Assembly (NCBI GenBank): GCA_003282175.1
Contig: QBZX01000002.1
Span: 50,742 to 114,741, forward strand
Direction of reading: 5' to 3'
DNA from: Pelagibacteraceae bacterium AG-337-G06
GTDB taxonomy: Bacteria > Pseudomonadota > Alphaproteobacteria > Pelagibacterales > AG-422-B15
Length of the DNA stretch: 64,000 bases
Position 1 is the first letter of the stretch. The number at the start of each line of letters is the position of its first letter. Below are positions 41,045 through 51,486 of the stretch, one piece after another. The notes beneath the pieces are model-generated. The model saw only the letters and a list, made by a program, of their open reading frames with translations. It made no database searches and was not told the DNA's origin. Made by a program: the position numbers and the translations under genes.

Positions 41045-42343
41045 ATGAGAAATATTTTCTATATCATTCTACTATCAATATTTGTAATTTTTAGTTGTAC
41101 AAAAAATGAAACTATAGAGGAAAATACTAATAGTTTTTCTATTTTGGCTTATGATGCAGAGGTTTCTGAAACTTTAGGCCTAAATATAGAAGATATAAGA
41201 ATAGATCCTCCAAGAGAAGTAAATTATTGGTCGCAGCATTTTCAGAATCCTGCGAATAATCTGAATAACATATTTTCTTTATCCGCTATTGAAAATAAGA
41301 CAAAGCTTGTTTCTGGATCAAAAGGAGCTCTTAATATAATCCAGCCAATTTATTTTAATGATACAATTTGCTATATTTTACCTAAGGGCTTCCTCGAATG
41401 TAAAAGTCTAAAAAGTAATGAAAAAATATTTTCAATTGATATTAAGGTTAATGGTAATAAAAAATATGAAATTATAAGAGGTGGGCTTGCTTATTTTGAT
41501 AATAAAGTATTACTTGTTGATGCTTATGGGCAGATCTTACTCATTGATGCAAATGATGGCAGTAAAATATGGGAGAAAAAAATTGAATTTTCTATTTTAT
41601 CTCCACCGTTAATTTATAGAAATCAAATTTTATTCATATCATCAGATAATCGATTATTTTCACTTTCTTTTGAGACTGGAGAAGTAGTATGGTCATTTCA
41701 AACAGTGGCAGAAGATAAGAAGAGTCTTATTACAGCGTCACCGATAGCTTTTGAAAACATAATTATTGCTCCTTTTAGCAATGGTGAACTAGTTGCATTC
41801 ACTAATGATACCGGAAGACCTTTGTGGTCAGAAAACGTCTCAAAGATCTCATCATTGAGTAATTTTGATATTAGGGATATTTCTGCTAGCCCAGTCTTAT
41901 TAAATAATACAATTTTTTCAGTTAGCACTAATGGCAAATTGATATCGACAAATGCCATAAATGGAAAAAGGAATTGGGCAATTGATTTATCAGGATACAG
42001 GACACCAACTGTTTCTGGAGGGCAAATATATGTCATTGATGAAGATGGAAAACTTATCTGTCTAAATAAAAATACAGGTGAAGTCTTTTGGATTACAGAA
42101 CTCAACAAATATATAAAAGGTCAAAAAGCAAAGGATCTGAATTTATGGCTAGGTCCATATTTAATAAATAATTTATTATATAATATTTCTTACTTTGGTG
42201 AATTAAAGACTGTATCCCCAATGACAGGCGAAGTTCTGTCAAGTGATAATATAGGTGTGAAAGGTATTATATTACCACCAGTTATATTAAGTAACAAAGT
42301 ATTTATTATGGACGAAAACTCAAATGTCTTCCATTTTGAATAA
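41045..42343 (+). CDS. bamB: BamB-like PQQ beta-propeller lipoprotein
   Basis: Lipobox-like IFSC, repeated G..IW/VVW/PLW/RNW/VFW propeller motifs; yfgM-bamB-der synteny. Confidence 0.8.
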   Translation: MRNIFYIILLSIFVIFSCTKNETIEENTNSFSILAYDAEVSETLGLNIEDIRIDPPREVNYWSQHFQNPANNLNNIFSLSAIENKTKLVSGSKGALNIIQPIYFNDTICYILPKGFLECKSLKSNEKIFSIDIKVNGNKKYEIIRGGLAYFDNKVLLVDAYGQILLIDANDGSKIWEKKIEFSILSPPLIYRNQILFISSDNRLFSLSFETGEVVWSFQTVAEDKKSLITASPIAFENIIIAPFSNGELVAFTNDTGRPLWSENVSKISSLSNFDIRDISASPVLLNNTIFSVSTNGKLISTNAINGKRNWAIDLSGYRTPTVSGGQIYVIDEDGKLICLNKNTGEVFWITELNKYIKGQKAKDLNLWLGPYLINNLLYNISYFGELKTVSPMTGEVLSSDNIGVKGIILPPVILSNKVFIMDENSNVFHFE

Positions 42344-43145
42344 AATAAATTTATGTATTATTGGTAAACCAAATTCAGGTAAATCAACTTTATTTAACTG
42401 CTTACTAGGAAATAGCATTTCTCCAGTTGGTGAAGAATACGGACTCACAAAAAAATTATTTAAAAATAAATTTACTTCATATAGCCACGATTTTACAATT
42501 TTTGATACGCCGGGACTGAGAAGAAAAAGTAAAATTGATGATTTAGACGAAAAGGAAAGAAACAAGGAAGTCATAAAACTTATCGATAGGGTAGACGTAG
42601 TAATTTTGCTCATAGATTCTGTAGAAAATATTACCAAGCAAGACTTTAGGTTGGCTGAAATAGCAATAACAAAAAAAAGGATACTATTTTTTTTGTTTAA
42701 TAAGATGGATCTTATTGACGAAGTTAACAAATTTAAAACTAAAATCGATAAATATTTAAGCAATAATTATAGTCAATATCAGATGATTAATACTGATTTC
42801 ATTTCTGCAGAGAAAAACATCAGAATTAAGAATTTTATAAAAGAAATTATTAAAAAAAATAAACTTGTTCACATTGAAATCACAAAAGCCAATTTAAATA
42901 AATTTCTTAATTATTTAAATAAACTATCAAAATATCCAAAAATTAAAAAAAGAGAAATAAAGCCTAAGTATATTGTGCAATTAAAGGCCAGTTCTCCACT
43001 TTTTAAAGTCTTTATTAATTCAAAAAAGAAAGCGCCTCTTATATTTCAAAGATTTTTTGATAATTCATTTAGGGATTATTTTAAGATAAAAGGAGTACCC
43101 ATTTCTTATAAATTTATAAGCTCCAGCAATCCTTATTCAGACTAA
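42324..43145 (+). CDS. der: Truncated Der/EngA-like GTPase: single G-domain (GD2-like) plus KH-like domain
   Basis: GKPNSGKS (G1), DTPGLRRKSKI (G3, GD2-type), NKMD (G4), FISA (G5), KH-like tail KPKYIVQ....P.FKVF.N......RFF.N.FR..F.IKGVPI....SS.NPY; only 273 aa. Confidence 0.85.
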   Translation: MSSILNKINLCIIGKPNSGKSTLFNCLLGNSISPVGEEYGLTKKLFKNKFTSYSHDFTIFDTPGLRRKSKIDDLDEKERNKEVIKLIDRVDVVILLIDSVENITKQDFRLAEIAITKKRILFFLFNKMDLIDEVNKFKTKIDKYLSNNYSQYQMINTDFISAEKNIRIKNFIKEIIKKNKLVHIEITKANLNKFLNYLNKLSKYPKIKKREIKPKYIVQLKASSPLFKVFINSKKKAPLIFQRFFDNSFRDYFKIKGVPISYKFISSSNPYSD

Positions 43146-43831
43146 AGCTTAATTATCTCACCACTTTTTTCATTCGATAGTAAGAAATTTACAATCGTTC
43201 TTGCTACATCGACTGGTTTTTTTATTTCTTTTTTATTCTCACCAGGCATGATATTTTCTCTAAAATTAGTATTTACCGCACCTGGATAGATAATATTAAC
43301 ATTTATAGAGGTCCCTTTATTTTCATTGGCATAACTTAAGACTAATTCATTTAATGCCGCCATAATTGGTTGATATATACCCCAATATTGGGATTTCATC
43401 TCATCTTTTATTGATGAAATAACTACAAAGTTAGATTTCTTAGAATTTTTCAGCAAAGGGTGAAAATGCTTCATAATTCTAAAATTAGAAACATAGTTTA
43501 ATTTGATAGTGTCATTGAATTCATTTAAATCAATTGACTCTACAGGCGATAGTTTAGTAATTTGACCTGCAGATGAGACAATAATATCTAAAAACTTATC
43601 TTTTTTAAAAATTTCTTCTGAAAGATTTTCAATTACATTAGGTTCACATAAATCAATTGGAACAATTGTACATTCACATCCATTTGAAATTATTTTGTCA
43701 TTTATCTCCTCTAATTTAGACGTATTGCGTGACAAAATATATATGTGTTTAACTGACCTTGACAGCTCTTGAGCAATACTTGCCCCAATTCCAGATGAGG
43801 CGCCTGTAATAAGACAATTAAGAGTTCTCAT
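43142..43831 (-). CDS. SDR-family oxidoreductase (YciK-like) with degenerate catalytic motif
   Basis: TGASSGIG, YWGIYQPIM in place of YWGAYxxSK, PGAVNT.FR...MPGE. Confidence 0.8.
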   Translation of the reverse strand: MRTLNCLITGASSGIGASIAQELSRSVKHIYILSRNTSKLEEINDKIISNGCECTIVPIDLCEPNVIENLSEEIFKKDKFLDIIVSSAGQITKLSPVESIDLNEFNDTIKLNYVSNFRIMKHFHPLLKNSKKSNFVVISSIKDEMKSQYWGIYQPIMAALNELVLSYANENKGTSINVNIIYPGAVNTNFRENIMPGENKKEIKKPVDVARTIVNFLLSNEKSGEIIKL

Positions 43832-43833
43832 GT

Positions 43834-44349
43834 TTATATGTCTATTTCTTCTAAATTTCTTGGCATATGTTCAAAAAAATCTATTCCAATATTTACCATT
43901 TCAGCAAATGAGCTATTGGTCATTAAGTCATTTAACAGAATAGAAGATATATTTTGATTTATAAAAAATAAGGTTATCACAATTACAATATATCCCCTGA
44001 AAATACCCAGGATCCCTCCAAGCCCCATATCAACAAAACCTTTTTTTTTAGGTTGTAAAAATCCAATAATAAGTCTCAGTAGGAATGAAAAAAATATATA
44101 TGAGGTTATTAGTGTAATTAGAAATATTGTTATATCAGATAAAGTCTCATTAGTAATATACTGATCTGCAACAGGTCTTAATAATTTAAAACAATTTTTA
44201 AGTATAAAAAATATTAATATCCATTTGATTAAATTAAAAAAACTCTTTAATAATCCATTTTTAGTGCCAAAAAAAATTGATATCAAACAAATGATCAGGA
44301 AAGAAATATCAAAAGTATTGAGAAATTGAGAATAATTAAGGTCGTTCAT
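43834..44349 (-). CDS. cvpA: CvpA family membrane protein
   Basis: FD......ISI.FG..NGL.K, D..LG.ILG..RG; four TM helices. Confidence 0.8.
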   Translation of the reverse strand: MNDLNYSQFLNTFDISFLIICLISIFFGTKNGLLKSFFNLIKWILIFFILKNCFKLLRPVADQYITNETLSDITIFLITLITSYIFFSFLLRLIIGFLQPKKKGFVDMGLGGILGIFRGYIVIVITLFFINQNISSILLNDLMTNSSFAEMVNIGIDFFEHMPRNLEEIDI

Positions 44350-50553: not shown

Positions 50554-51486
50554 ATGAAAACAGCATTAATTTTTCCTGGACAAGGGTCTCAAAACGTTGG
50601 GATGGGGTACGACTTTTATTCTGATTTTCAGTCATCACGTGATATTTATGACCAGCTAGACAAAATAATGGGGGAAAGTCTTGCAAACTTAATTTTCAAA
50701 GGCGAAGAAAGTGAACTTGCCATGACAGAAAATTCACAACCCTCAATAATGGCAACAAGCATTGCAATATTCGCTGCTTTAAAAGAAAGTGGGAAATTAG
50801 ATGATCATTCTTTTGATTGTGTAGCTGGCCACTCTCTTGGTGAATACTCGGCATTAGTCGCTAACAAATCACTTAGTTTTAAAGACTCTTTAAAATTACT
50901 TAAAATTCGATCCAAAGCTATGCAAAAATGTATGCCAATTGGCACCGGAGGAATGGCAGCAATTATTGGAGGCAACGAAGAAGCGATAGCTGGCATCATC
51001 AGCGATATCAGTTCGGAAGGAAAAATTTTTATTGCTAATGATAATGCAATTGGGCAAATAGTTATAAGTGGTGAAATGAAAGCAATTGATTATGTTGTTG
51101 CAAATTCAAGAAAACTTGGTTTCAAAAAAGCTATTAAGCTGCCAGTAAGCGCCCCTTTTCATAGTGAGTTTATGATGAAAGCCTCAATGATAATGAAAGA
51201 TGAGATTAATAAATATAGTTTTAATGCTTTCGCTGTACCACTTTATTCTAACGTGTCTTCTTTACCTTGTAATGTAGGAGAAATAAAGCAGATTCTAGTA
51301 GATCAAATAATAAAAAAAGTTAGATGGAGAGAAATTATAGCAAATATGATAAATGATGGAGTGGAAAGGTTTATTGAAATCGGACCTGGCAATGTATTGA
51401 CGAATTTAGTAAAAAGAATGTCAAAAGAAACAATATCAATATCAATATCAAAAGTAGATGATTTTGAGAAATTGGATAATATTTAA
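50554..51486 (+). CDS. fabD: Malonyl-CoA:ACP transacylase
   Basis: FPGQGSQ, AGHSLGEY, LPVSAPFHS, EIGPG.VL. Confidence 0.97.
   Translation: MKTALIFPGQGSQNVGMGYDFYSDFQSSRDIYDQLDKIMGESLANLIFKGEESELAMTENSQPSIMATSIAIFAALKESGKLDDHSFDCVAGHSLGEYSALVANKSLSFKDSLKLLKIRSKAMQKCMPIGTGGMAAIIGGNEEAIAGIISDISSEGKIFIANDNAIGQIVISGEMKAIDYVVANSRKLGFKKAIKLPVSAPFHSEFMMKASMIMKDEINKYSFNAFAVPLYSNVSSLPCNVGEIKQILVDQIIKKVRWREIIANMINDGVERFIEIGPGNVLTNLVKRMSKETISISISKVDDFEKLDNI

Follow-up and report, generated by a model that had tools for sequence, protein, structure and literature searches.

A conserved Der (EngA) homolog with a single G domain in Pelagibacterales, a candidate minimal form of a ribosome-assembly GTPase

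Introduction

Der (EngA) is regarded as near-universal and essential in bacteria, is defined by two tandem G domains (here GD1 and GD2), and has been proposed as an antibacterial target. In a 64,000-nucleotide stretch of Pelagibacteraceae bacterium AG-337-G06 (GenBank assembly GCA_003282175.1, contig QBZX01000002.1, forward-strand positions 50,742 to 114,741; hereafter the window), we found that the der gene directly downstream of bamB encodes a protein of only 273 residues that carries one G domain. The question this locus raises is what became of GD1. An initial reading of the sequence alone, made without database searches (the sequence-only reading), had offered a minimal one-G-domain Der left by deletion of GD1, a collapse of GD1 and GD2 by recombination, a GD1 split off to another locus, and a decaying copy. 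Here we ask which of these accounts for the short der, and how the gene is distributed in the order Pelagibacterales (SAR11).

Results

The short der encodes a GD2-type G domain and a KH-like domain

Pfam searches of the 273-residue protein (short Der) found MMR_HSR1 in one copy only (residues 10-127, 73.5 bits) and KH_dom-like (PF14714), which aligned to residues 186-264 over positions 2-80 of its 81-position model with 52.9 bits (cut-off 27.3), after which the chain ends in SSNPYSD, with NPY at residues 269-271. The NCBIfam Der model TIGR03594 matched residues 7-264 over model positions 175-431 of 432 with 195.1 bits, under the 306.7 cut-off for the whole protein, while model positions 1-174 were unmatched, and the two tandem G domains of the family definition are thus not both present. 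The single G domain and the Der KH-like tail ending in NPY, as first read from the letters, were in this way confirmed by Pfam and TIGR03594. Other features by which we recognize a Der are there, namely the KH-like domain, a GD2-type G domain, the G1-G5 motifs together with the asparagines of the K+ loop, and the position after bamB. Models of related GTPases scored under their cut-offs, both for Era (77.4 bits on NF000908, cut-off 237, and 60.1 bits on TIGR00436, cut-off 116.25) and for EngB/YihA/YsxC (49.2 bits on TIGR03598, or 51.8 in the genome scan, cut-off 124.45), and we assigned the protein to neither family.

The gene begins with ATG. Both its 20-nt overlap with bamB and an in-frame TAA upstream (Table 1) had been noted in the sequence-only reading and are present in the sequence; since the TAA closes the frame, there is no room for GD1. 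That reading had also described the G2 loop (GLTKK) as eroded, which we do not uphold: relative to the GxTRD pattern only the flanking R and D are changed, to K or variable residues in short Ders, while the core is intact, with G40 and the switch-I T42 invariant in 30 of 30 sequences.

The G domain is read as a diverged GD2

We scored the G domain against GD1 and GD2 profiles built from 141 full-length Ders. The whole domain scored 161.2 bits on GD2 versus 96.9 on GD1, and the part after switch II 91.7 versus 25.7 bits, while the first ~55 residues were ambiguous (56.2 bits for GD2 versus 55.0 for GD1). In 30 full-length alphaproteobacterial Ders held out from the profiles, the same N-terminal segment was told apart by 18-32 bits for true GD1 and by 20-99 bits for true GD2, versus a GD2/GD1 difference of -3 to +12 bits over 30 short Ders. 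Per-column log-odds of GD2 over GD1 were positive for RRK (+4.8, +3.2, and +2.3) and for the KQ of TKQD (+3.3 and +2.6), in agreement with the earlier assignment of DTPGLRRKSKI and ITKQD to GD2. Summed along the chain, the log-odds stood at +7 bits at the end of the P-loop, remained at ~+7-11 up to G3, and then rose to as much as +74; the per-column scan contained no GD1-like run or switch point. The suggestion that STLFN is GD1-like held for its F alone, which is GD1-typical (-1.9) and isolated, with no GD1-like run beside it. In a profile search of the PDB, B. subtilis EngA was matched with 198 bits over GD2+KH and with 89 bits over GD1. From these profile comparisons, we read the G domain of short Der as a diverged GD2 whose first ~55 residues appear to have lost most of the GD2-specific signal. 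A collapse of GD1 and GD2 by recombination, as had been envisaged, is not supported, as the log-odds show no GD1-like stretch anywhere from residue 1 onward.

GD1 is not found elsewhere, and the junction is not a misassembly

The genome to which the window belongs measures 1.27 Mb in 20 contigs, is 93% complete, and has ~33% G+C. Scanning it with profiles gave 10 matches to TIGR03594, none over the cut-off, and 11 to MMR_HSR1; besides short Der, the frames with G-domain matches were read as MnmE, Era, Obg, IF2, HflX, LepA, YchF, BipA, EF-G, and EF-Tu, of which Era and HflX were confirmed by NCBIfam. The Era is a separate ORF that scored 151.6 bits on TIGR00436 and 212.9 bits on NF000908. With a GD1-only profile built from 16 alphaproteobacterial Ders, no stand-alone GD1 was found in this genome or in four closed (single-contig) relatives (0 of 5 genomes). 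The top match of that profile in each of the four relatives was short Der itself (75-84 bits); in the window's own genome MnmE (66.1 bits) came slightly above short Der (63.5 bits), followed by Era, IF2, HflX, and YchF. These searches with the Der, MMR_HSR1, and GD1 profiles refute, for these five genomes, the proposal that GD1 had been split off to another locus. No full der was found elsewhere in the genome, and the relatives carry no GD1. A scan with TIGR03598 did not detect YihA/EngB/YsxC in the window's own genome, where the best match to TIGR03598 was short Der at 51.8 bits (cut-off 124.45), and so a second 50S-assembly GTPase (YihA/EngB) seems to be missing too, unless it lies in the unassembled 7%.

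The bamB/der junction was bridged by contigs of an independent marine metagenome run, over 182 nt without differences and by another over 367 nt, which speaks against a misassembly at this point. Across four read runs (Logan contigs), no insertions or deletions were reported at bamB/der; these contigs are short and highly polymorphic, bridged the junction in one run, and are uninformative on expression level, and gaps in the coverage of the RNA run carry no weight. A one-G-domain Der is also found in the single-contig relatives G025, G026, G035, G036, G086, and G087.

Short Ders are widespread in Pelagibacterales

Full-length Der above the cut-off was found in 0 of 151 genomes in a sample of the order, each at least 85% complete. 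A short Der was present in 16 of 19 genomes of family f1 and in genera g2 (5 of 5), g4 (5 of 5), and g7 (1 of 2), and none was found in this sample in genera g3 (0 of 108), g8 (0 of 9), g9 (0 of 1), and g10 (0 of 1). Some of these genera could be named from public proteins identical to those of the relatives: g2 corresponds to alpha proteobacterium HIMB114 (269 residues, 'GTP-binding domain protein'), g4 to Candidatus Fonsibacter (277 residues, 'GTPase'), g7 to Candidatus Pelagibacter sp. IMCC9063 (267 residues, 'GTP-binding protein EngA' or 'GTPase'), and g3 to Candidatus Pelagibacter (RS39 and HIMB15xx strains). Close homologs of the window protein carry the public name 'GTP-binding protein [Pelagibacteraceae bacterium]'.

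Among 41 close relatives, 26 had a TIGR03594 match at E ≤ 1e-30, all of them short, with open frames of 272-290 residues that aligned to model positions ~173-431; the one exception in frame length, of 397 residues, holds the same 273-residue protein. The 41 distinct short Ders that we collected, closed genomes included, measure 267-286 residues in stop-to-stop frames of 269-290 residues, and in the 23 loci listed an upstream in-frame stop stands 10-26 codons before the P-loop. Where bamB could be recovered in close relatives, the 20-nt overlap with der was found as well (8 of 8). Metagenomic homologs are of similar size, 118 of the best 120 having 271-285 residues. In a library of 1.8 billion representatives, 146 of the best 150 matches were Ders of 423-608 residues that aligned over GD2+KH with ~27-35% identity, and the remaining four were short Der's own cluster or fragments. 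A P-loop pattern search of genome contigs proved too general, its 80 loci being full-length Ders of unrelated phyla plus one OCS116 single-amplified genome, and none were used.

In the sample of the class, Der scored above the cut-off in 194 of 201 genomes (unpublished genome G200 included). The seven below it were two genomes of this order, three drafts without a Der match, and genomes G193 and G185. The closed 1.4-Mb genome G193, from a different alphaproteobacterial order, encodes a very divergent Der that keeps both G domains (425-residue frame, 177 bits). By our reading of the sequence, G4 of its GD1 is NQLD instead of NKxD, which may mean that GD1 has eroded independently in a second streamlined lineage, and its der also follows a bamB-like beta-propeller ORF. 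G185 (0.5 Mb) has a shortened Der (375-residue frame, 170 bits) that spans both G domains and is presumably a reduced endosymbiont version.

The short der is under purifying selection

Among nine genomes of the window's subclade (36 pairs, Nei-Gojobori), the median ratio of nonsynonymous to synonymous substitution (dN/dS) of the short der was 0.081 (dN 0.039, dS 0.525), with 0.081 in the G domain and 0.065 in the KH part, and so was not above the 0.097 of bamB in eight of the same nine genomes (28 pairs; one locus was dropped since no upstream ORF was detected). Purifying selection on the gene indicates that the protein is in use. An alignment of 30 short Ders (alignment A1) from both families, 24-63% identical to the window protein, has invariant residues G14, P16, N17, G19, K20, S21, T22, N25, G40, T42, D61, and G64, and likewise T104, D107, K127, D129, K215, K228, F230, N269, and P270. 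In this GTPase superfamily the K+ site is formed by two asparagines (PMC3466195), which here are N17 and N25. A conserved GD2-KH Der under selection is thus real. As a separate observation, the short der of G047 (genus g6), a 50-contig draft, is frameshifted once near residue 153. Before and after this point the gene is 86-87% identical to that of a genus-mate, and the frameshift is either a sequencing error or a recent inactivation.

The predicted fold matches GD2+KH of ribosome-bound Der

AlphaFold2, run on alignment A1, gave a confident model of a GD2+KH fold (predicted local distance difference test, pLDDT, 90.0; predicted TM-score, pTM, 0.87). A Foldseek search of the PDB with this model returned Der structures first, the best being B. 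subtilis YphC on the 45S particle (9bsl_W; TMq 0.85, root-mean-square deviation 2.3 Å over 260 columns), followed by trypanosome mt-EngA and the crystal forms 2HJG, 4DCU, and 1MKY, with E. coli EngA on the 50S (3J8G) in 17th place; superposition on Era structures gave a deviation of ~20 Å over the whole chain. A homodimer prediction, in which two copies might mimic the GD1:GD2 pseudo-dimer, scored 0.00 ('no answer').

The truncation is old

A gene tree was computed from the GD2+KH part of 41 short Ders and 32 full-length ones (IQ-TREE quick, LG+C20), with compositional bias flagged for 32 rows. All short Ders lie on one side of a single branch, and support was 97 for family f1, 99 for family f2, and 96 for 30 full-length alphaproteobacterial Ders; G193 and G185 are long, unplaced rows. 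The truncation is old and common to two families of the order. Given an identical boundary, a shared bamB overlap, and the restriction of the short form to one order, the simplest history would be one N-terminal deletion in the ancestor of the order. Such a deletion, with later full loss in Pelagibacter and some other genera, is consistent with the tree and is not proven by it.

Pelagibacter lacks der altogether

Beyond the 0 of 108 genomes given above for Pelagibacter, a search of five closed genomes of the genus at E ≤ 0.001 found only frames of the size of MnmE, IF2, Obg, and YchF. No der remnant was seen there, KH_dom-like being above chance in 0 of the five closed genomes; its sole trace was a 16.3-bit match that lies elsewhere in an unrelated context and is interrupted by a stop. 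In Pelagibacter, bamB is followed, in place of der, by an unrelated, conserved hypothetical protein of 141-143 residues without a Pfam match. Neither the absence of Der from Pelagibacter nor the spread of the trait over the order had been anticipated in the sequence-only reading. Ribosomal protein uL1 was retained in all five genomes checked for it, two of them Der-less Pelagibacter. As an observation from this tiny sample, uL1 scored 235-241 bits on TIGR01169 in the Der-less genomes G027 and G028 and 285-296 bits in the short-Der genomes G000, G025, and G036.

Neighboring genes

The features of the locus are collected in Table 1. Translation of the short der is probably coupled to that of bamB through their overlap. 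The sequence-only reading had placed the gene in a yfgM-bamB-der order, and the bamB-der part of this stands, while the identity of yfgM does not: the ORF in that position was matched by no model of Pfam or NCBIfam (E ≤ 0.01). Its Pelagibacter counterpart has a weak match to TPR_21 (27 bits, cut-off 25.5). Downstream, the stretch 43142-44349 on the minus strand holds a convergent gene for a short-chain dehydrogenase (adh_short, 116 bits) whose stop overlaps that of der by 4 nt, as well as a CvpA/colicin V production protein, and this synteny is unlike that of Pelagibacter.

Table 1. Features of the short der locus (positions in the window)
Feature	Positions	Strand	Remarks
Short der, GD2 + KH-like protein, 273 aa	42324..43145, stop codon included	+	single MMR_HSR1 + KH_dom-like
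In-frame TAA closing the der frame, 11 codons before ATG	42288..42290	+	stop-to-stop frame from 42291
Overlap of der start and bamB 3' end, 20 nt	42324..42343	+	
G1/P-loop GKPNSGKST plus N25, residues 14-25	42363..42398	+	includes K+-loop asparagines N17 and N25
G2/switch I, G40-L-T42	42441..42449	+	G40 and T42 invariant, 30/30
G3 DTPG, then GD2-specific LRRKSK	42504..42533	+	D61 and G64 invariant; RRK strongly GD2-type
TKQD motif, T104-D107, GD2-type	42633..42644	+	T104 and D107 invariant
G4 NKMD, N126-D129	42699..42710	+	K127 and D129 invariant; N126 in at least 90%
G5 I-S-A, residues 160-162	42801..42809	+	I160 and S161 in at least 90%
KH-like domain, residues 186-264	42879..43115	+	K215, K228, and F230 invariant
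bamB, 432 aa, directly upstream of der	41045..42343	+	PQQ_2 144.9 bits; TIGR03300 166 bits (below 285 cut-off)
ORF at yfgM position, 210 aa	40411..41043	+	identity not confirmed

Discussion

A proposed role for the GD2-KH unit

The functional background used here comes from three papers. On the E. coli 50S subunit, the KH domain of Der sits among H80, H89, H92, and H93 at the peptidyl-transferase center, with GD2 under H68 and touching H68, H75, and H88, while GD1 touches H82, H88, and L1; GD2+KH forms a rigid unit, GD1 swings with the nucleotide state, and the two G domains pair as a pseudo-dimer that is thought to activate hydrolysis (PMC4245960). E. coli EngA from which GD1 was removed (deltaGD1-EngA) retains binding to 30S, 50S, and 70S and resembles EngA[GDP:GTP] in its behavior, ribosome binding is lost without GTP on GD2, and the KH domain alone binds 30S (PMC2673443). 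GD2-KH of B. subtilis is stable, has micromolar affinity for GDP and GMPPNP, and has a K+-stimulated GTPase activity (PMC3466195).

We consider it likely that the short Der is a functional minimal Der, i.e., the GD2-KH ribosome-docking unit without the GD1 regulatory domain, and of the origins considered at the outset, deletion of GD1 leaving a one-G-domain Der is the one that order-wide conservation, a dN/dS of 0.08, the intact motifs, and the confidently predicted GD2+KH fold support. In the mechanism we propose, a der orthologue would have lost the whole N-terminal GD1 with its linker and would make only the GD2-KH unit. In its GTP-bound form this unit would dock on a late pre-50S particle, the basic KH-like domain lying at the helices of the peptidyl-transferase center and GD2 under H68, and K+-assisted GTP hydrolysis in the single G domain would then free it. 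What would have gone with GD1 is the mobile nucleotide-sensing switch that gates subunit specificity, together with the contacts to H82, H88, and uL1 and the pseudo-dimeric GD1:GD2 activation, and by analogy with the engineered fragments the protein probably became a slow, K+-assisted switch without that regulatory layer. From these fragments and from the predicted model, we infer that short Der binds the ribosome, runs a GTPase cycle, and acts in 50S assembly; it may also be essential. In Pelagibacter the reduction would have been completed by deletion of der from the bamB locus.

Several points weigh against the view that the short Der is a working minimal Der of single origin. In vivo function of Der in E. 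coli requires both G domains (PMC4245960), and so a GD2-KH protein cannot simply be assumed to work like canonical Der. Members of the sister genus Pelagibacter manage without any Der, which means that its function can be spared in this background and could have shifted. In the gene tree, the branch uniting the short Ders has a support of only 39 in the SH-like approximate likelihood ratio test (SH-aLRT), which makes a single origin weakly supported, and the stems of the short Ders are long (0.92 and 1.34 changes per column, versus mostly 0.2-0.7 on the end branches of full-length alphaproteobacterial Ders). RNA evidence is thin as well, amounting to one 146-nt metatranscriptome contig inside der at ~90% identity, for which carry-over of DNA is possible.

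Alternative explanations

The long stems and the dispensability of Der shown by Pelagibacter would also suit a GD2-KH unit repurposed for something other than 50S maturation, for example as an Era-like or 30S/70S-binding GTPase or as a sensor of stress or energy. Such a change would agree with the binding of deltaGD1-EngA to 30S, 50S, and 70S and of KH alone to 30S (PMC2673443), and also with the undetectable YihA/EngB in the window's genome, which would mean that the set of assembly GTPases has been rearranged. We nonetheless think repurposing unlikely, since the synteny and overlap of bamB and der are conserved, the KH-like domain and the GD2-KH geometry fit ribosome-bound YphC, a separate Era is present, and no new domain or motif has been gained. 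A chimera, in which recombination at the P-loop fused GD1 to GD2 so that GD1 would have supplied the N-terminal ~20-55 residues and GD2 all that follows, is somewhat harder still to credit. It could explain why the segment from P-loop to DxxG scores alike on the two sub-profiles (55.0 vs 56.2 bits) and why the F of STLFN and T104 are GD1-typical; however, the mean log-odds favor GD2 from residue 1 without a contiguous GD1-like run, GD2-like residues are found both within the P-loop (S at position 11) and after it (LLG), and divergence in a fast-evolving, AT-rich lineage accounts for the lost signal equally well.

That the ORF is open yet non-functional, a decaying remnant as in the lineage leading to Pelagibacter, is very improbable. 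Complete loss in g3, g8, g9, and g10 and the G047 frameshift near residue 153 would be expected of such decay, but that frameshift is an isolated case from a 50-contig draft, both domains have a dN/dS of 0.08 that is not above that of bamB, and there are hundreds of intact metagenomic copies. Length is constant (267-286 residues), and the catalytic motifs are invariant across lineages only 24-34% identical. Together, the dN/dS, the constant length, and the invariant motifs refute the decaying copy that the sequence-only reading had allowed for. Least credible of all is an artefact of assembly or annotation, or a GD1 encoded as a separate gene elsewhere, which we regard as next to impossible: the genome is a 20-contig draft, 93% complete, but the same architecture occurs in single-contig relatives, independent metagenome contigs bridge the junction, and the GD1 profile found a stand-alone GD1 in 0 of 5 genomes. 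A minimal Der that lacks GD1 is the reading with which we continue.

Implications for ribosome assembly in SAR11

We searched for earlier descriptions of a one-G-domain Der, or of Der absence, in SAR11 and found no paper that gives one (subscription journals lay outside the search). The main text of a 2025 survey of more than 30,000 genomes (PMC12641178) contains neither 'SAR11' nor 'Pelagibacter', its supplementary tables being a place where the absence may be listed, and the SAR11 Genome Atlas preprint contains none of 'GTPase', 'Der', or 'EngA'. Short Der sequences are already public under mostly generic names ('GTPase', 'GTP-binding protein'). On balance we favor, with fair but not high confidence, a joint reading in which the SAR11 order builds its 50S subunit without canonical Der: several clades, namely the window's family, the HIMB114/IMCC9063-type genera, and the freshwater Fonsibacter, would use a selected half-Der that predates the split of the families, while Pelagibacter would be Der-less with uL1 kept, a situation that is apparently undescribed.

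If this is true, GD1, and then Der itself, is dispensable in a free-living bacterium outside the Candidate Phyla Radiation (CPR), and SAR11 are the most abundant free-living marine bacteria. The order would offer a natural series from two domains to one to none for dissecting the role of each Der domain, and a natural, selected single-G-domain Der would answer, by way of evolution, an old question, namely whether GD1 is intrinsically required or is a regulatory add-on to a GD2-KH docking unit. The loss in Pelagibacter would show that 50S assembly can proceed without Der in a free-living bacterium whose uL1 is ordinary, which points to compensating features of SAR11 ribosome assembly; candidates are slow growth, ObgE, and changes in rRNA and ribosomal proteins. 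There is a practical side too, as TIGR03594 serves as one of the markers in bacterial phylogenomics and in estimating genome completeness, and its cut-off systematically misses Der in this order.

Comparison with known systems

Short Der shares with Der/EngA/YphC (1MKY, 2HJG, 3J8G, 9BSL) the GD2-type G1-G5 motifs with the K+-loop asparagines, a KH-like domain ending in NPY, the GD2-KH geometry, and the place after bamB. Unlike them, it has no GD1 or GD1-GD2 linker (~170-200 residues), and it cannot form an intramolecular GD1:GD2 pseudo-dimer or make the GD1 contacts to H82, H88, and uL1. In domain content it resembles the engineered deltaGD1-EngA (E. coli residues 213-503) and B. subtilis GD2-KH, fragments that fold and bind guanine nucleotides and ribosomal subunits, as described in PMC2673443 and PMC3466195; those, however, are artificial and come from parents that need both G domains, whereas short Der is natural, selected, and the only copy in a free-living lineage. 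Era likewise joins a single TRAFAC G domain to a C-terminal KH-type domain that binds RNA, in ~280-300 residues, but short Der scores under the Era cut-offs and a genuine Era is encoded elsewhere in the genome. Finally, CPR bacteria, as treated in a survey (Mol Biol Evol 2025, PMC12641178), are like SAR11 a small-genome lineage that breaks the rule that der is universal. In CPR, der is gone outright and its loss is coupled to that of uL1, whereas SAR11, a free-living alphaproteobacterial lineage, retains uL1 and has a half-Der intermediate.

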